A DNA stretch of 64,000 nt from Candidatus Bipolaricaulota bacterium (GTDB lineage Bacteria; Bipolaricaulota; Bipolaricaulia; UBA7950; UBA9294), in contig JANQEA010000035.1 of the NCBI GenBank assembly GCA_028278555.1, positions 152,089 through 216,088 on the forward strand. Direction: 5' to 3'. A model generated the notes under the pieces. That model saw nothing but the letters and a program-made list of their open reading frames with translations, made no database searches and had not been told where the DNA came from. Below are positions 1,112-25,789 of the stretch, piece by piece; within the stretch, counting starts at the first letter, position 1; every line of letters begins with the position of its first letter. Made by a program: the position numbers and the translations under genes.

Positions 1112-2101
1112 ATGAAGGCGTTCGTCACAGGCGGAACCGGGTTCCTGGGAGCCAACGTCGTCCGCGATCTGCTCGAACGGAACATCGGCGTCCGCGCCCT
1201 CTGCCGGCCGACGCCGTCGCGCGGAAACCTCGAGGGCCTCGACGTCGAGATCGTCGAGGGGGATCTTCGTGATGTGCAGTCGCTCCGCCGCGGGATGGCC
1301 GGCTGCGAGCTCGTCTTCCACGTCGGCGCCCTCTACTCGTTCTGGGTCCGACCTCCCGGTCTGATCTACGAGGTCAACGTCGATGGAACGCGGAACGTCT
1401 TCGACGCCGCCCTCGAAGAGGGGATCGCGCGGGTCGTCTACACGAGCTCGGTCGCGGCACTCGGCCTCCGCGACAATGGACATCCGGCCGACGAGACGAC
1501 CGCGACGTCACTCGCCGAGGTCGTCGGCGACTACAAGAAGACGAAGTACCTCGCCGAGCAGATCGCGCTCGAGTACAGCGCGAAGCTCCCGATCGTCATC
1601 GTCAATCCGAGCTTCCCGGTCGGACCGTGGGACGCGAAGCCGACTCCGACCGGCCAGACGATCGTCGACTTCCTCAACCGGAAGATGCCCGCCTACCTCG
1701 ATACCGGGATGAACGTCGTCGACGCCCAGGACGTCGCTCTCGGCCACTGGCTGGCCCTCGAGAAGGGGACGGTCGGCGAACGGTACATCCTCGGTGGCGA
1801 AAACGTGACGATGAAGGGGCTGTTGGATCTGCTCGCCGAGATCACCGGGTTGCCATCACCTAGAATCAGGCTCCCGTACACGCCGATCCTCGCGATGTCC
1901 TACCTAAACGCCGGGTTCTGCAAGCTCTTTCCTCGGATCACCCCGCGGATGACGCCGGAGACGATCCGGATGTCGAGCCACTACATGTACTTCGATCCGA
2001 CCAAGGCCGTCCGAGAGCTCGGTTTCCCGCAGACCCCTGCCAAGGACGCCCTCGCCAAGGCCGTCGACTGGTATGGGGAGAATGGGTACGTGAAGAACTG
2101 A
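1112..2101 (+). CDS. NAD-dependent epimerase/dehydratase (SDR-extended family, HpnA/dihydroflavonol-reductase-like)
   Basis: MKAFVTGGTGFLG Rossmann N-terminus with a YxxxK region, 329 aa. The true start is at 1112 (RBS GGAGG at 1100-1104). The track ORF 752..2101 is an in-frame upstream extension overlapping the previous gene. Confidence 0.9.
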   Translation: MKAFVTGGTGFLGANVVRDLLERNIGVRALCRPTPSRGNLEGLDVEIVEGDLRDVQSLRRGMAGCELVFHVGALYSFWVRPPGLIYEVNVDGTRNVFDAALEEGIARVVYTSSVAALGLRDNGHPADETTATSLAEVVGDYKKTKYLAEQIALEYSAKLPIVIVNPSFPVGPWDAKPTPTGQTIVDFLNRKMPAYLDTGMNVVDAQDVALGHWLALEKGTVGERYILGGENVTMKGLLDLLAEITGLPSPRIRLPYTPILAMSYLNAGFCKLFPRITPRMTPETIRMSSHYMYFDPTKAVRELGFPQTPAKDALAKAVDWYGENGYVKN

Positions 2102-2250
2102 GAGGCGGAAGTATTCGACGCGTGGCAGCTGTGAAACATCGACTTTCCACTCTCAGCGCTACGCTCACTCGACTCGCAGCGCCTGGAACACCGTCAGATC
2201 AACACTGTCTCTTCGAGCAGCGGCTTCTTGACTCTGATCGAAAGGATCAA

Positions 2251-3579
2251 CTACGGCAGCTTCTTGAGAATGGCCTTGATCTTCGAATCCAGCTTGTTCT
2301 TGAGAGTAGTGATGTTCGGGTAGAACACCACCGCGAAGTCCTTGATGTCGAAATGGAGCATCGTTCCTTCTCTTGCAGTAAAGATGACTCTCTTGTTGAC
2401 GCCGTGAGTGTATCCGATTTCGTAATAGACATTGGGTCTTTCGTGCGTGAGATCCGCAATGACGAATTGCGCTGAATCTATCGATTCCATGATCTTGTCA
2501 GTTATCTTCTCCGTATCCTCAACATCATCGACCCTGTAGGCCTTCAGATCGTTCTCTTCACATACCTCCTTGATCGCAGCGTGAACATCGTCCAGGCCTG
2601 GATCTTCCTTTGTCATGGCCATGATGATGAACACCTCTCTCGATAGCTGCGGTATCCCCGCACCGGTTTCTGCAGATGCCACAACTCCACCTCCCAATTC
2701 CCGATACAGATTAGCCAGCTTCTCCTGCTCAGCTGCAAGTTGGTGAGGTGTCTTCTTGCTTGAGTGCAAATCCTCGACCAGACTTGCAAGCCGAGCATAG
2801 CTCTGAAGCCATGCCTCTGCGATGAACCCAATCCAACGATTGTGATCCTCCACTTCGTCTACAGCGAGCAGTTCCTCGTAGTACTCAGCTCTGTTTCCCA
2901 GAAAGAAGCGATCGGTACCAATGAGCGTATGGTCGAGTCTGTATCCACCAATGAGCATAGCATAATTCGCTAGTAGACGCGCAACACGCCCGTTTCCATC
3001 TAGAAACGGGTGGATTCGGGCAATCCCGTAGTGCACAACAGCTGAGACTACCACCGGGTTAGCATCGGGATTGGATTTCACCCAGTGCAGCATAGCCTGG
3101 AGAGCAAGCGAAACTGTCTCTGGCTTCGGCGGAGTGTAGAGGATCTTGCGGTCCGGCATTCTGATAACGTAATTCTGTACTTCACGCAGCTTTCCTCCGC
3201 CGCTTCCGGGAGTGAGGCGTCGGTGGGCCTCCTGGATGAGCGGAAGACTGATGGGCGCGTCTTCTGCCGCACAATCCATTAGGTATTCGATCGCCTCTGC
3301 GTAAGCTTGAATCTCGTGTCCAGATACACCAGCATCGGGCGTGCGGATACCCCGGGGGATGCCCAGAGGGGTGTCTATCCCTGTAGCCGATAGGAACTCA
3401 CCAGATTGAAGAATGCTGATAATCTCGTCCCGGTTCTTGGAAATCGACAGTACTGTTTGAACGTAGGTGTAGTGACGCGTGATTCCCTGTAGCTTTGAGA
3501 CTAGATCAGGAGTGTAGCTGAACTCGATGCTGAAACTGTCAGTCATCTTGGACTCTGCGTTTCTCTCAACGACAGACAT
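2251..3579 (-). CDS. Fic/Doc-family protein fused to a C-terminal DNPH1 / nucleoside 2-deoxyribosyltransferase-like domain
   Basis: 442 aa. Canonical Fic motif HPFLDGNGRVARLL at aa 190-203. The C-terminal ~110 aa (…QFVIADLTHERPNVYYEIGYTHGVNKRVIF…) aligns with the catalytic core of Rcl/DNPH1 and NDT enzymes (ADVVVAEVTQPSLGVGYELGRAVAFNKRIL). The gene is visibly AT-richer than its neighbours. Confidence 0.85.
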   Translation of the reverse strand: MSVVERNAESKMTDSFSIEFSYTPDLVSKLQGITRHYTYVQTVLSISKNRDEIISILQSGEFLSATGIDTPLGIPRGIRTPDAGVSGHEIQAYAEAIEYLMDCAAEDAPISLPLIQEAHRRLTPGSGGGKLREVQNYVIRMPDRKILYTPPKPETVSLALQAMLHWVKSNPDANPVVVSAVVHYGIARIHPFLDGNGRVARLLANYAMLIGGYRLDHTLIGTDRFFLGNRAEYYEELLAVDEVEDHNRWIGFIAEAWLQSYARLASLVEDLHSSKKTPHQLAAEQEKLANLYRELGGGVVASAETGAGIPQLSREVFIIMAMTKEDPGLDDVHAAIKEVCEENDLKAYRVDDVEDTEKITDKIMESIDSAQFVIADLTHERPNVYYEIGYTHGVNKRVIFTAREGTMLHFDIKDFAVVFYPNITTLKNKLDSKIKAILKKLP

Positions 3580-3865
3580 GGTGAGACATCAGACACGCCA
3601 TTCGAGCCTCCCTTCGCTGAACCCAGACTGCCGCCACATGTTCTGACTCTCTCCCATACCAGATTACCACTGGAACTCGCGCAGTGTAGGTTACCATTGT
3701 GGAGTACGTCGATCAATGCTCCGCCAGCGAGCCAACTTCCCCCCACCTCTTCAGCCTTGCTTGAGAATCGCAATCCCATCTCCCACAGGCCGCAGCGGCC
3801 TCTGAACGGCGCGGCGTATCTCGTACTACTCGTTGATGCCGTGCAGACAGAATGCCGCCTCCAGT

Positions 3866-4309
3866 TCATCTCCTACGGAGCGGGTGCTTCCGCGCCTTCA
3901 GTGTCAGCAGACCGAACGCAATGAGCCCTGCTATTAAGGACGCGATGAATGAGAACTCCAGCTCCGGCCATGGTTTTGCTTCAAGCTGAAGACCACAGAA
4001 CGGAGCAATGAATCCGACGGCGATAGCAGCTGCAATGCCCAGGCTCAAACTCGCCATCGCACGTGTCAGAAGGTCACGCGCAAGCGATCTTCCGATTTGC
4101 AGGGCGGCCAGACCAACCAGTGCGCCAACAAGCAGATCCCAGCTGTCGTAGGTGCCAGGCGCATACTCGACTGCAAGTAACGCAGCTAGAAGGGTAGCTC
4201 CCGCCGCTCCACGGCCGACGGTAGTTTCTTGAGTCGCGTTTCTCACTAGTACTCCTCCTCTCGCGATCCTCTCCCACACGCGCATCGGCATCAATGATTT
4301 CTGAGCCAA
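3866..4309 (-). CDS. Small polytopic membrane protein (about 3-4 TM helices), function unknown
   Basis: Hydrophobic helical stretches (GAAGATLLAALLAV…LVGALVGLAALQIG…LGIAAAIAVGFIAPF…IASLIAGLIAFGLLTL) ending in a basic tail. The track start at 4309 is TTG. ATG codons at 4291 or 4285 are alternative starts, and the SD is weak. Confidence 0.5.
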   Translation of the reverse strand: MAQKSLMPMRVWERIARGGVLVRNATQETTVGRGAAGATLLAALLAVEYAPGTYDSWDLLVGALVGLAALQIGRSLARDLLTRAMASLSLGIAAAIAVGFIAPFCGLQLEAKPWPELEFSFIASLIAGLIAFGLLTLKARKHPLRRR

Positions 4310-4462
4310 TCCTGCGGATGAGGACTTGCTCGATCAAGAGCGACTACCATCCCGCTCGGAGCATCCCTGCAAGATTCACTCGAACACGTTGCCAGTGACG
4401 TTCCCTGCGGCATCGGTTTCTAGCAGTCCTTTGGACGAATCCAGGAGTACGAGTTCATTCTC

Positions 4463-4773
4463 TCACGAGTCGCGAACCACGACGCAACGACCGATCCGGA
4501 TGTCGAACGGTTGGGCAACTGTCGTACCGCCCGCTTCCGTGAAGCAGACAGCGGCCTCGTCGGCGTTCGATACCTTTAGGTCGATCTCGGGCGGCTTGGG
4601 CTCCGTGTGAAGCACGATCTCCGTTTCGTCCTTCCCTAGCGCTAGCCAACCTCATCTTCGGTCCGCCAAAGGAGTTCCAGCCTAAGCTTGTCTCGGTAGA
4701 ACGACAGACCCGATTCGAGGTCGTCCACGGACAGCTGCACACAATCCACCTTCTCGATGAGCGGTTCGGTCAC
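4463..4773 (-). pseudogene. VOC/glyoxalase-family gene interrupted by a frameshift
   Basis: GTG start at 4773 preceded by GGAGGA. The N-terminal part (VTEPLIEKVDCVQLSVDDLESGLSFYRDKLRLELLWRTEDEVG*) ends at TAG (~4642-4644). The C-terminal part (…LGKDETEIVLHTEPKPPEIDLKVSNADEAAVCFTEAGGTTVAQPFDIRIGRCVVVRDS*) continues in the adjacent frame, and the two halves together make a typical VOC fold. Confidence 0.5.
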
Positions 4774-4790
4774 GGTTTCCTCCGGAGTCT

Positions 4791-6170
4791 CTACCTCTTC
4801 AGCGCAGCCTTGACCAGCTGCCGACCTAGATCCCAGAGTCCGCCGCGGAGCTTGTGCGCTTTGTCGAGGGTCGCGTCAATGGCTGAGAGCGCGAAGTCCA
4901 CATCCTCGTCCGAGAGGATCAGCGGCGGGAGGAACTTGATGATGTTCACCCGGTGGCCCGACACCTGGGTGAGGAGCCGGTGGTCGCGCATCAGACCCAT
5001 GACAACGAGCTGGGCGAAGAGCCCGGCCTGCATCGTTTCGAGCGCCTTCCACGCCGCCTTCAGCTTGAGCGACTTCGGTGGCCCGAACTCCATCCCGATC
5101 ATCAGTCCCTTCCCGCGGACGTCGTGGAGCATCTCGTACCGCGACTGCATGTCACGGAGGCCGGCGAGGAGCCGCTCCCCCTGCCGAGCGGCATTCTCGA
5201 TCAGGTTCTCCGACTCCAGCACTTCGAGCGTCGCTAGGCCTGCCCCCATCGCCAGCTCGTTCATCCCGAACGTGTTCGAGTGGACGACGCACCGCTCGAG
5301 TCCGGAGAACGTCTTCTTGTGCAGGTCGCGGCGGATCAGGATCGCGCCGACCGGGATGAACCCGCCGGAGAGGGCCTTCGAGATCGGAACGATGTCCGGT
5401 TCGAGGCCCCAATGCTCGCCGCCGAAGAAGCGGCCGGTCCGGCCGAGTCCGGCCTGGATCTCGTCGACGATGAAGACCGTCCCGTGCTTCCGGCAGAGCC
5501 GCTGCGCCTCGGGGAGGTACTCGTCGTCCGGCATGTAGACGCCCTTTCCCTGGATCGGCTCGGCGATGAACGCGGCCACATCCGCGCGCTCAAGCTCGCG
5601 CTTGAGCGCGTTCAGGTCGTTCAACGGGACGCCCGTGGAGGGAAGGAGCTGTCCGAACCCCTCGCGGAAGTGCGGGCTCCCGTTCACCGAGAGGGCCCCG
5701 AGGGTGAGTCCATGGAACGCGTGATCGATGTAGACGAACCGGTCACGCTTCGTCGCGGCACGGGAGAACTTCAGCGATCCCTCGACCGCTTCGGCCCCGG
5801 AGTTGGTGAAGAAGACAGCGTCGAGCCCAGGGTAGCTACGCTGGGCCCGTTCGGTCAGTCGCTCGGCGAGGAGGCCGGCGAGGAGCGGACAGTCCATCTG
5901 GATCAGGTTTGGCCGATCGAGGTCGAGCAGTTGGTGAAGGGTCTCCTTCAGGACCGGATGGCTCCGGCCGACCTGGTAGACGCCGTAGCCGGAGAGGAAG
6001 TCGAGGTACCGATTCCCACCGTCGTCGTAGAGGTACGCCCCCTCGCCGCGTGTGTAGGCTACGTCGTAGTCGATGATCTGCAGGACCCTCGCCAACGCCG
6101 GATTGACGTGGCGCTTGTGCAATTCGATTTGTTCCCCGAGCCGTTCTTCGATCAGCTTCGCGATCTCCAT
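4791..6170 (-). CDS. Class III PLP-dependent aminotransferase (acetylornithine/GABA/omega-amino acid aminotransferase family)
   Basis: 459 aa with the typical AT-III architecture (…FTNSGAEAVEGSLKF…DEIQAGLGRTGRFF…SKALSGG…). Confidence 0.9.
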   Translation of the reverse strand: MEIAKLIEERLGEQIELHKRHVNPALARVLQIIDYDVAYTRGEGAYLYDDGGNRYLDFLSGYGVYQVGRSHPVLKETLHQLLDLDRPNLIQMDCPLLAGLLAERLTERAQRSYPGLDAVFFTNSGAEAVEGSLKFSRAATKRDRFVYIDHAFHGLTLGALSVNGSPHFREGFGQLLPSTGVPLNDLNALKRELERADVAAFIAEPIQGKGVYMPDDEYLPEAQRLCRKHGTVFIVDEIQAGLGRTGRFFGGEHWGLEPDIVPISKALSGGFIPVGAILIRRDLHKKTFSGLERCVVHSNTFGMNELAMGAGLATLEVLESENLIENAARQGERLLAGLRDMQSRYEMLHDVRGKGLMIGMEFGPPKSLKLKAAWKALETMQAGLFAQLVVMGLMRDHRLLTQVSGHRVNIIKFLPPLILSDEDVDFALSAIDATLDKAHKLRGGLWDLGRQLVKAALKR

Positions 6171-6239
6171 CCCCCACCTCCGGATCGATCATACCACTGC
6201 CGGCTCGCCCGGGTGCCGCTCGCTGGGTATCCTGACCGC

Positions 6240-7112
6240 GTGTCCGGTTCGAGGGGGTTCGCCATCCGATCGGTCTTCGCTGCAGCGCTCGTGCTGTTGG
6301 CTGTCTCGCTCTTGATCTTCGCCGACGAGCCAGACGCTGAGGCGCTCCTCGCCAAGGCCGACGCGGCCTACGATCGGTGGAGCGAACCGTTCGACTTCGC
6401 CGTCTACGAGATCGCCCTCCGCGAGGCGATCGACCTGTGGGAAGAGGCTCTTCCGCTACTGCCCGACGAGGAGCCGGCAACGCGGATCCGCGTTCTCAAT
6501 CGCCTAGCGCAGGCGTTGTTCGAACTCGCGACGGCGTACCAACCCGAGCCGCGCGATCGAGAGGCGACCTTCGAGCGTGCCCGGGACTTCGGCCTGCAAG
6601 CGCTCGAGCTCGATCCTGCATTCGTCGCGACGCGCGAGGCGGACGGCTTCCGCGCTGCCCTTCGCGCGGCGACCGACGTGAAGACGATCTTCTGGTACGG
6701 GAACACGCTCGGTTCGTGGCTCGACTTCCACCGAATGAAGGCGATCTTCGGCGGCGTTCGTGACGTCGGTGCAGCGTTCGAGCGGTCGATTGAGATCGAC
6801 GAGACCTACGATGGCGGCGGGCCGCACCGAGCGATGGGCATCTTCATCGCCCAGGCCCACTTCCTCGTCGGGAAGAGCCGCGCCGATTCGGTCGTCCACT
6901 TCGAACGGTCGATCGAAATCGATCCGACCTACCTCGAGAACTACGTGAACTACGCCGAGTACTACGCACGAGGGACCGACGACGAGCTGTTCGATCGGCT
7001 GATCGAGACCGTGCTCGCAGCGGCCGAGGATCCGGCGATCGTCGGCGCCCATCCGCTCTACAACCACCTCGCGATCGAACGGGCGCGCGGACTCGCCGCC
7101 AACCGGAAGTAG
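6240..7112 (+). CDS. Secreted TPR-like repeat protein
   Basis: The in-frame GTG at 6240 gives a signal-peptide-like N-terminus (SGSRGFAIRSVFAAALVLLAVSLLIFA) followed by helical repeat-like segments. The upstream portion of track ORF 5280..7112 is antisense to the aminotransferase and was not used. Confidence 0.6.
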   Translation: MSGSRGFAIRSVFAAALVLLAVSLLIFADEPDAEALLAKADAAYDRWSEPFDFAVYEIALREAIDLWEEALPLLPDEEPATRIRVLNRLAQALFELATAYQPEPRDREATFERARDFGLQALELDPAFVATREADGFRAALRAATDVKTIFWYGNTLGSWLDFHRMKAIFGGVRDVGAAFERSIEIDETYDGGGPHRAMGIFIAQAHFLVGKSRADSVVHFERSIEIDPTYLENYVNYAEYYARGTDDELFDRLIETVLAAAEDPAIVGAHPLYNHLAIERARGLAANRK

Positions 7113-23759: not shown

Positions 23760-23791
23760 GTCCCTGATTTCGACTATGGGAGATGGTTCAA

Positions 23792-25789
23792 ATGTCGAAA
23801 CTCGGGAAACGCATCTGCGTTGTGTGCGCGATCATCCTTGTGGCAGCTGTTGCTATGACCTGCGTTGCGCAGGAGTACGGAAAGGATAACCCACAAGCGT
23901 GGGGCGGATACCCTGAGGGATACAAGTTTGGTGCTGATGGAACCCAGCCGGATCATCCTGACGGATACGACGGCTGGCCAGCAGACCATCCCAACAATCC
24001 CAACAAGGGCTACGCCGGCAAAGGCGGCAAGGGCGCGGACGCGACTAAAGAAGGCCACGCAGCTGGGAATGGAGGGAAGGGTGGTGCTGGACCAAAGAAT
24101 GATGATGGCCCCCTTAATTCCTGGAACGGCGGCAAAGGCGGAGCCGGCGGAGGCAGCTCAGTTCCGGGAATACGCGGTGGAAATGGCGGCAAAGGCGGCG
24201 ATTCCACACACGGAGCCGGAGGCGATGGCGGCAATGGCGGCGATGGCGGCGAGGACGATGTGACGGTGAAGCACTCCGCCGGCGGTAACGGCGGCAAAGG
24301 CGGAGACAGCGTCAACGGTAACGGCGGCAAGGGCGGAGACGCTGGGAAGGGTAGCGACAGTGCGCCCGGCGGAAACGGCGGCGACGGAGGCACCAGCATT
24401 CATAAGACAGGAGGAGCGGGGGGTGACGGCGGCGACGGCGGCAGCAATGGCGAGGGTGGCAACGGAGGAAGTGGCGGTCACACGAGACATGGGACGGGCG
24501 GACCGGGCGGCAATGGCGGAAACGGCGGCGCGAGCAAGATTCCAGGACAGAAGGGAAAGACGGGAGGTGAGGGCGGCGATGGCGGCAATGGGTATGTCGG
24601 CGGTCCCTGCGACAAGGTAGGTAACGGGGCCGGAGGCAAGGGCGGACAAGGCGGGCAAGGCGGCGCGGGTTACTCTGGCGACGATGAGAACGACGCAACG
24701 GGCGGCGGGGATGGTGGGAAAGGCGGGGCCGGAGGAAATGCCGGAGACGGGGAAGATGCATCCGCGGGCAATGGCGGGGATGGTGGGAAAGGCGGCACAG
24801 CGAACAAGAAACCTGCAATTGGGGGCACTGGCGGGAAGGGTGGCAAGGGCGGCCGCTCTGGGCTCGGCAACAAAGGCGGCACTGGCGGAAAGGGTGGACC
24901 AGGAGGAGATGGACCAGACAAGCATGGCGGAGAAGGCGGGGCTCCTGGTGAAGGCGGAGACTATTCCCCATCTGGCCCCATGAAGCCTGGCAAAGGAGGC
25001 ATGGGTGGCAGCGGCGGAAAGGGAAGCCCCGAAAAAAAGGATCGAAGTCGTGAGAGAGGTGCCTCCGGCTCTTGTGTGAGATACGTCTGCCTTCCCTTCT
25101 CAGGTTTCGGATGGGAACGGGCTTGGACCTCGGACACTGATCGGGCCGAGTGTGTTGGCTTGGGCCTTTGCTGCGTCGGCCTAGATGTGGGCGTCGAAGT
25201 CGTGACAGTCGACCATGCCGGAATGCTGTCCGACATCATAGATCTCACACCACTGCTAGGCTGGTGGAGCAGCGAGTCGTACTCCCCGATGATCGGCGTG
25301 GCCATCACTGCGCTTCTCCCGGAATGCGGAACCGGGCTACCTCTTGTCGACATAGCCTATGGCTCGGCCAGCATCCCTGTGAGTGGTCACGCCGAGTGGA
25401 TCCTCGAAGATTCCGATTATGGACTCGCGGAGATCCAGGGCATCCTTGGCATAACCCGTGCGTCCTTGGGATTCGGGATGCGCATCGGTGCACTCTGCGA
25501 ATGCCCTGTGCTGACACCGTACGTCGACCTCAAAGCGGGAATCGCACAGTCGTGGTTAGAGTTCGAGGATGTCCAATCCGGGATGGATTCGGTAGATCTG
25601 CGGACACTGCTAGAAACTAACACAAGTGCTATCACACAGTACTACGTGCAAGCTTCCATGGGAGCCTCGTTCTCACTCGGTCCACAGCTTGACCTTCGTC
25701 TTGTCGGGACTGGAAGGATCTCGGGGGGAGCGGATCAATCAACCCATTTCGAGTTCGGGGGAAGTCTGTCACTGGGGCTCCGCTTCTAG
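23792..25789 (+). CDS. Secreted glycine-rich repeat protein (PGRS-like GGxGGxGG modules) with a C-terminal beta-barrel-like domain ending in Phe
   Basis: Start moved to the ATG at 23792 (MSKLGKR…), which has GGGAGA 8 nt upstream. Signal peptide RICVVCAIILVAAVAMTCVAQE. About 300 aa of GGNGGKGGD / GGDGGNGG modules. A Cys-rich linker precedes a ~200-aa C-terminus of amphipathic beta-strands ending …FGGSLSLGLRF. Confidence 0.75.
   Translation: MSKLGKRICVVCAIILVAAVAMTCVAQEYGKDNPQAWGGYPEGYKFGADGTQPDHPDGYDGWPADHPNNPNKGYAGKGGKGADATKEGHAAGNGGKGGAGPKNDDGPLNSWNGGKGGAGGGSSVPGIRGGNGGKGGDSTHGAGGDGGNGGDGGEDDVTVKHSAGGNGGKGGDSVNGNGGKGGDAGKGSDSAPGGNGGDGGTSIHKTGGAGGDGGDGGSNGEGGNGGSGGHTRHGTGGPGGNGGNGGASKIPGQKGKTGGEGGDGGNGYVGGPCDKVGNGAGGKGGQGGQGGAGYSGDDENDATGGGDGGKGGAGGNAGDGEDASAGNGGDGGKGGTANKKPAIGGTGGKGGKGGRSGLGNKGGTGGKGGPGGDGPDKHGGEGGAPGEGGDYSPSGPMKPGKGGMGGSGGKGSPEKKDRSRERGASGSCVRYVCLPFSGFGWERAWTSDTDRAECVGLGLCCVGLDVGVEVVTVDHAGMLSDIIDLTPLLGWWSSESYSPMIGVAITALLPECGTGLPLVDIAYGSASIPVSGHAEWILEDSDYGLAEIQGILGITRASLGFGMRIGALCECPVLTPYVDLKAGIAQSWLEFEDVQSGMDSVDLRTLLETNTSAITQYYVQASMGASFSLGPQLDLRLVGTGRISGGADQSTHFEFGGSLSLGLRF

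Follow-up and report, generated by a model that had tools for sequence, protein, structure and literature searches.

A Fic domain fused to a TIR-DrHyd-class module on a horizontally acquired island of a Bipolaricaulota bacterium: a candidate stand-alone conflict protein

A low-G+C island between two core genes encodes a rare Fic fusion

In a 64,000-nucleotide stretch of a Candidatus Bipolaricaulota genome (contig JANQEA010000035.1, positions 152,089 to 216,088; hereafter the window, in whose numbering all positions are given), an island of low G+C content (2102..4790, no strand assigned) lies where two convergent core genes meet, filling the space between their stop codons. Its main gene (2251..3579, minus strand, stop codon included) encodes a protein of 442 residues in which a Fic domain is fused to a C-terminal module of the DrHyd/nucleoside 2-deoxyribosyltransferase (NDT)-like kind. 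An alternative start at M12 (position 3546) is possible; the two full-length homologues (P0002 and P0003, each 56% identical to the window protein) begin near residue 10. The 442-residue open reading frame (ORF), the numbering of H190 and E387 and the strings VFIIMAM and FVIADLT...NVYYEIGYTHGVNKRVIF, on which an initial annotation made from the bare sequence had relied, are all present. Fusions of Fic to this module were found in only four clusters (P0001-P0004) among 5.8 billion proteins. The initial annotation had not recognised the combination as a named system, and we likewise found no description, in the literature searched, of one polypeptide with a Fic and an NDT/deoxyribosyltransferase-type domain.

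Windowed composition bears out the impression, first gained by eye, that the island is poorer in G+C than its surroundings: the G+C content is 54.6% for the island and 51.6% for the fusion gene versus 63.3% for the whole window, and the fusion gene is the lowest-G+C 1329-bp stretch of all 64 kb, about 4.9 standard deviations under the mean. G+C at third codon positions (GC3) is 58.5% in this gene versus 87-88% in three flanking genes. Codon usage had been described as rich in AAA, GAA, ATT and TTA, and this is correct for GAA (29 versus 15 per 1000) and ATT (23 versus 0.9 per 1000) but not for AAA, which is used once (2.3 per 1000), or TTA, which is not used at all.

The core genes on either side encode an NAD-dependent epimerase/dehydratase (1112..2101, plus strand; PF01370, E = 2e-30) and a class-III aminotransferase (4791..6170, minus strand; PF00202, E = 1e-88). 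Orthologues of the aminotransferase (72-89% identity) are found in metagenome-assembled genomes of Candidatus Bipolaricaulota/Acetothermia, and orthologues of the epimerase adjoin the aminotransferase in relatives. At two such loci (L009 and L014) the two genes are convergent and oriented as in the window with a gap of 8-9 bp, compared with 2,689 bp between their stop codons in the window, and none of the 11 related loci that bear the aminotransferase contains the Fic fusion or either of the other island genes, for a membrane protein and a VOC protein. Because the flanking genes stand only 8-9 bp apart in L009 and L014, with no island genes, we conclude that the island is an insertion. Its horizontal acquisition, which had initially been argued from composition and gene content, is thus established by atypical composition together with a directly observed empty site in relatives. 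The composition also fits the background of the closest copy of the fusion gene (L019, 77% nucleotide identity), which lies in DNA of about 50% G+C; two full-length relatives of the fusion sit in DNA of 35-41% G+C. Neither an integrase nor tRNA or other RNA genes were found near the island, and repeats at its boundaries amount to short matches at chance level. The empty-site comparison is also a record of gene flow into the Bipolaricaulota, which as a candidate phylum are known from metagenomes alone.

The Fic half is a SoFic-like core in a divergent setting

The Fic core (residues 88-290; 2710..3318, minus strand, as are all parts of the gene given below) matches PF02661 with 71.1 bits (cut-off 24, E = 1.4e-19, residues 110-207), finds SoFic (3eqx) as its best sequence match in the PDB (E = 5e-14) and matches the PADLOC SoFic model at E = 5.9e-38, here over the core only (model positions 91-282 of 361). 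The catalytic motif HPFLDGNGRVAR (residues 190-201; 2977..3012), located by regular expression, has the AMPylation-competent form HxFx(D/E)GNGRxxR, is identical in all four fusion proteins and occupies invariant columns in an alignment with relatives (A2). The canonical Fic active site of the initial annotation thus stands, and the motif predicts that the Fic half is competent for AMP transfer. The NCBIfam SoFic equivalog model (NF046030) gives 69.6 bits, far under its cut-off of 550.

Among proteins without the fusion, the nearest relatives share 30-36% identity and show the SoFic-type architecture of Fic_N, Fic and helix-turn-helix (HTH) domains. A profile built from 111 SoFic-like relatives aligns with the fusion from residue 88 onward only, and the preceding region (residues 1-87; 3319..3579) is divergent, with no detectable similarity to Fic_N or to an inhibitory helix. 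The inhibitory motif [ST]xxxE[GN], which could not be located when the sequence was first read by eye, is absent from the whole length of all four fusion proteins (0/4), versus 97/111 relatives that carry it. E61 lies one column from the inhibitory glutamate of the relatives in the MAFFT alignment (A2), at a place with no profile-level similarity and where the AlphaFold2 (AF2) model is unusable; both E61 and D69 are conserved in the fusions, in a non-canonical context. E61 might represent the inhibitory motif displaced by a single column, but the profile alignment lends no support to homology here. At the other end of the core, a linker (residues 291-314; 2638..2709) that is conserved in the fusion clade replaces the start of the winged-helix C-terminal domain (CTD) of the relatives (A2). 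The winged-helix domain itself is absent, no HTH Pfam model matches, and the C-terminal module stands in its place. Judged from these alignments, the fusion clade appears to have lost both the inhibitory-glutamate motif and the winged-helix CTD of its SoFic relatives.

In published experiments SoFic of E. coli (EcSofic) acts as a toxic AMPylase and serves in defence against phages; a 47-residue protein encoded downstream counteracts it, and its CTD is reported to be essential for toxicity (PMC12249575). Since the fusion swaps out exactly the regulatory parts of SoFic, namely the inhibitory motif and the CTD, it amounts to a natural experiment in the control of Fic toxicity.

The C-terminal module combines features of NDT/DNPH1 and TIR proteins

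The module comprises the last 128 residues (315-442; 2254..2637). Modelled alone by AF2 (residues 300-442, 63 homologues), it is predicted to adopt a Rossmann-like fold with a mean predicted local distance difference test score (pLDDT) of 90.9 and a predicted template-modelling score of 0.85. MilB, DNPH1, BcmB and NDTs are the structures that match this model best, and TIR domains follow closely; the top Foldseek ranks are held by DNPH1 and the CMP N-glycosidase BcmB, and matches in a viral fold library are labelled CMP/hmCMP hydrolase, Cap12/PycTIR TIR or NDT. The modelled fold is therefore compatible both with NDT/DNPH1 proteins and with TIR-like proteins that have a glutamate at the equivalent position.

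Sequence comparisons are similarly mixed. The NDT family PF05014 reaches 21.6 bits with the full protein and 24.5 bits with the domain alone, under the gathering score of 28.8, although it is matched by 59 of the 63 homologues and, at E <= 1e-3, by 98 of 138 diverse module relatives. For PF10137 (Cap12/PycTIR TIR) the scores are 13.2-17.4 bits versus a cut-off of 24.7, only 10/63 and 4/138 of the same relatives match (the latter again at E <= 1e-3), and no other TIR model in Pfam matches the protein. By contrast, the PADLOC model PDLC00733, 'Effector (TIR)', matches the window protein at E = 9.5e-13 and all 138 relatives, with a best E of 6.4e-23. Searches of PDB sequences with the module yielded E = 0.19-0.28 only, DNPH1 being found at E = 0.28. 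Public names reflect the same division: PGAP calls plasmid relatives of the module 'nucleoside 2-deoxyribosyltransferase', and UniRef calls one family member a Cap12/PycTIR TIR-domain protein.

E387 (codon 2419..2421), the predicted catalytic glutamate, aligns with the catalytic glutamates of DNPH1 (GYELG) and of Leishmania NDT (FELGYA) and is invariant in alignments A1 and A3. Its position agrees with that of the nucleophilic glutamate of NDT/DNPH1 proteins, where the helix that follows strand 3 begins. Across the 138 representatives D376, N383, E387 and F410 are invariant, and F317 and M320 are conserved across the module family. In DNPH1 the 5'-phosphate-binding loop that follows strand 1 is rich in Gly, Ser and Arg. 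Read from the sequence, the module has no loop of this type; the corresponding segment is FIIMAMTKEDPG / FIIMAMTKEDPGLDD (FIIMAM...DP). The initial reading of the C-terminus as NDT/DNPH1-like holds for the fold and the catalytic glutamate, but not for the PF05014 score or for this loop.

Because the fold and profile matches are mixed, E387 is aligned with known catalytic residues and the DNPH1 loop is lacking, the module cannot be assigned to either NDT/DNPH1 or TIR proper, and it is better described as belonging to a separate family of effector cassettes, with a very wide distribution, in the TIR-DrHyd(NDT)-SLOG class. This class was defined by Burroughs, Aravind and colleagues, who regard the DrHyd domains of conflict systems as NADase effectors equivalent to TIR (PMC9503650). 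Cleavage of (deoxy)nucleotides in the manner of DNPH1 is thus one option for the module, and NAD+ is at least as likely to be its substrate.

The strongest rival follows from that first option: the module might be a true DNPH1/NDT-type (MilB-like) hydrolase of (deoxy)nucleoside monophosphates or nucleosides, which would make the protein a nucleotide-pool toxin rather than an NADase. The structural ranking suits this rival, but every Pfam NDT score falls short of the gathering cut-off, the sequence similarity to DNPH1 in the PDB is slight, the loop after strand 1 is not a DNPH1 phosphate loop, the PADLOC 'TIR' effector model matches much more strongly and TIR folds score nearly as high. We consider it a possible explanation of lesser probability.

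The module is a widespread cassette behind variable N-termini

An exhaustive phmmer search over 1.84 billion representatives returned 16,842 clusters with the module at E <= 1e-3 and 2,494 at E <= 1e-10. The module stands at the C-terminus of 239 of the 257 closest proteins, whose N-terminal regions (242 in number) sort into unrelated similarity groups (51 groups, 33 singletons), with module identity staying at 40-58% across unrelated architectures. Among the N-terminal partners are guanylate-kinase/PhnN-like P-loop and RuvB-like AAA+ domains, HEAT repeats, CBS domains, a nucleotide cyclase and Hcp of the type VI secretion system (T6SS). In alignment A3 one representative joins the module to a class III nucleotide cyclase domain and another joins it to CBS domains; fusions to Hcp, which are specialised Hcp effectors, comprise P0044 and 2 of the 138 representatives in A3. 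These Hcp fusions argue that the module would be toxic on its own when delivered. By analogy, a conserved C-terminal enzyme behind variable N-termini corresponds to the pattern of sensor-effector immune proteins. Knowledge of the cassette's substrate, once found, would annotate thousands of proteins.

Relatives of the module lie in conflict and mobile contexts. At locus L001 the Fic fusion has a ThsB-TIR gene and an HNH-like remnant at a distance of 1.5 kb; P0015 adjoins a ThsB-TIR gene together with SLATT and a QueC-family gene; and P0090 adjoins a DUF4160/DUF2442 toxin-antitoxin pair. A copy on a Bacillus plasmid adjoins an integrase, distant copies occur in the lysogeny region of temperate phages of Streptococcus and Staphylococcus, and on a phage-like plasmid of Leptospira a SEFIR gene lies directly upstream of the module gene and a large methyltransferase gene downstream. 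No partner gene is conserved across the loci of the relatives that were examined, which is consistent with a single-gene system.

Two of these surveyed loci deserve separate mention. On the Leptospira interrogans plasmid p4 (NZ_CP043897.1; L021:4964-9776) the genes for the SEFIR protein, the NDT-like module and a 772-residue class I methyltransferase run head-to-tail with gaps of 12-67 bp, and may form an uncharacterised multi-gene conflict system with the same effector module. On an unrelated metagenomic contig, a stand-alone Fic gene (L003:14438-15481) lies about 5 kb from a gene that joins a P-loop kinase to the NDT-like module (P0014), a proximity that is probably coincidental.

Selection on the fusion gene and the fate of its neighbours

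Compared with the L019 copy, which is 5'-truncated at about residue 147, the ratio of nonsynonymous to synonymous substitution rates (dN/dS) is 0.08 in total, with 0.15 in the Fic half and 0.03 in the C-terminal module, much of the selection history measured in this way predating the transfer. Both halves are under purifying selection and have been kept as functional proteins. A perfect 55-nt direct repeat (GCCGATTTGGTCGCCTGACGCGGCAAAATCGTGGTCTGTCCCCGATTGTTCTCCC; L019:1-55 and L019:1145-1199) stands on both sides of the truncated gene in L019, and an inverted partial copy of it occurs at 1000-1038. The arrangement suggests that a repetitive or mobile element broke the gene; the repeat is absent from the window.

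A further ORF of 35 residues is common to the two low-G+C loci of the Fic-NDT fusion (L001:2659-2766 and L002:2-109), where it has a 4-nt overlap at the start codon of the Fic gene. It might encode a leader or partner peptide or be no more than conserved upstream DNA. We rejected it as a conserved partner, as the two loci are close relatives, about 7 of 30 residues differ and the window has no counterpart.

The fusion is the only gene of the island that is both intact and conserved. The VOC/glyoxalase gene (4379..4758, minus strand), initially described as decayed, is indeed a pseudogene: its frame shifts once near 4645 and is interrupted by an in-frame stop at 4463-4465. The reconstructed sequence passes PF00903 (24.7 bits versus a cut-off of 20.6). 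Between it and the fusion gene a co-inserted orphan gene (3866..4309, minus strand) encodes a small membrane protein of 147 residues (141 in the public gene call). Its ORF is present as described earlier and has an atypical composition (GC3 56%); it has only weak matches to transmembrane families in Pfam and no homologue besides itself among the 5.8 billion proteins. The 149 bp downstream and 286 bp upstream of the fusion gene contain no credible or conserved antitoxin-like ORF, as had been noted at the outset. A scan for promoters and terminators gave nothing above shuffled expectation, the sigma-70 scan not being informative for this phylum.

It is conceivable from such surroundings that the fusion gene is inert cargo, a recent and not-yet-decayed remnant that is silent in this host. 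The adjacent pseudogene, the orphan membrane protein, promoter- and terminator-like signals no better than chance, a composition that has not ameliorated and the 5' truncation of the L019 copy all fit with this. We nevertheless consider it unlikely, given that the 442-codon ORF is intact and retains all its catalytic motifs and that dN/dS against L019 is low, though much of that history predates the transfer; the absence of a sigma-70 promoter says little in this phylum.

Beyond the island, an ORF of 610 residues (5280-7112, plus strand) is mostly antisense to the aminotransferase gene and an artefact of high G+C content. Only the C-terminal part (about 6200-7112) corresponds to a genuine gene, conserved in relatives, where it likewise adjoins the aminotransferase. 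Farther away, an ORF of 668 residues (23783-25789, plus strand) begins with a signal-like segment, continues with glycine-rich repeats of the GGxGG type (GGKGG/GGNGG/GGDGG) over about 400 residues and has a C-terminal region resembling a beta-barrel; this ORF accounts for the strong local GC skew of +0.20 and AT skew of +0.16 at 24-26 kb.

A candidate conflict protein with two enzymatic halves

We propose with moderate confidence that the fusion is a stand-alone conflict protein, such as an abortive-infection or anti-phage toxin or a similar one, that joins an N-glycosidase effector to an AMPylase; judged from context, a role in toxicity or defence is plausible. The module would be an N-glycosidase whose catalytic carboxylate is E387, alongside D376, N383 and H409-F410-D411. 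Upon activation or oligomerisation of the protein it would destroy a nucleotide cofactor that is essential to the cell; NAD+ is the most likely target, with a (deoxy)nucleotide as the alternative. While the module would occupy the place of the regulatory CTD of SoFic, the Fic half would fill the variable sensor/regulator position of the cassette family and might either control the effector or deliver a second hit by AMPylating a protein of the cell or of a phage.

Several observations weigh against this proposal. The best sequence and Foldseek matches of the module are CMP/dNMP hydrolases, not NADases, and its best profile match is a 'TIR' effector model with no stated parent system, which makes the substrate ambiguous. 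The window holds no other defence gene adjoining the island, no antitoxin and no recognisable promoter, and some relatives of the module, such as P0014, are found in unremarkable contexts. That a Fic domain devoid of the inhibitory motif is tolerated by its host is unexplained, and the full-length AF2 model (pLDDT 55) is disordered at residues 58-87 and in the C-terminal domain and gives no information on contacts between the domains. Finally, since the VOC gene next to it has decayed, the island may be on its way out.

A closer mechanistic coupling of the two halves, in which a brake-free Fic domain AMPylates the module or is gated by it, or both halves act sequentially on one nucleotide and so make or destroy a nucleotide-derived molecule that neither family is known to handle, strikes us as improbable. 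If true, it would constitute a new single-protein immune mechanism and would provide a functional handle on an almost entirely uncharacterised cassette family of more than 16,000 clusters. That the fusion is not an intracellular defence protein but an antibacterial toxin, exported or dependent on contact, against which the orphan membrane protein or an unrecognised factor confers immunity, is very unlikely: the module does occur fused to T6SS Hcp (P0044 and the two A3 representatives), so that it can act as a delivered toxin, and the small membrane protein was co-inserted directly upstream on the same strand, but the fusion has no signal peptide, secretion-associated domain or adjoining secretion genes, the membrane protein is without homologues and does not occur at the other loci with a Fic fusion, and most architectures of the module carry cytoplasmic-type N-termini (kinases, AAA+, HEAT).

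Comparison with known systems

The stand-alone conflict protein that we favour can be set against four kinds of known systems. With SoFic of Shewanella and E. coli, a single-gene anti-phage class II Fic protein, the fusion shares a core that is homologous over about 190 residues, the HPFxDGNGRxxR type of motif and the YTPP flap region. Unlike SoFic, it scores under the equivalog cut-off, shows neither Fic_N similarity nor the (S/T)xxxE(G/N) motif, carries an enzymatic cassette in place of the winged-helix CTD and has no AS1-like ORF downstream.

From DNPH1/Rcl, MilB, BcmB and the NDTs (PF05014, 'DrHyd') the module is set apart by an identity of 9-22% and a score under the gathering threshold, by its differing loop after strand 1 and by the family-specific invariant N383 and H409-F410-D411; moreover, it is a cassette found at the C-terminus of many unrelated proteins and not a free metabolic enzyme. 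Unlike the TIR NADase effectors (PycTIR, Cap12 TIR-STING, TIR-SAVED and ThsB), the fusion matches no TIR Pfam model above cut-off and has no sensor of the cNMP, STING or SAVED type, and its locus has no cyclase partner.

The effector of retron Ec86 (Retron-Eco1) is an NDT-like anti-phage protein that is active as a dimer and reportedly depletes adenine and its derivatives (bioRxiv 10.1101/2023.08.16.553469). The likeness to the fusion lies in the NDT-like domain, which in the retron is the toxic effector of an anti-phage system. In contrast to Retron-Eco1, the island has no reverse transcriptase or multicopy single-stranded DNA, the NDT-like domain of the retron is N-terminal in a two-lobed protein, and no close sequence relation between the module and the retron effector was detectable in the PADLOC scan.

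Fic AMPylases and TIR/NDT-class N-glycosidases are each an established weapon in bacterial conflicts. Both parts of the fusion are thus of known kinds, and domain shuffling is common among conflict proteins, but the combination of Fic with this module is very rare.

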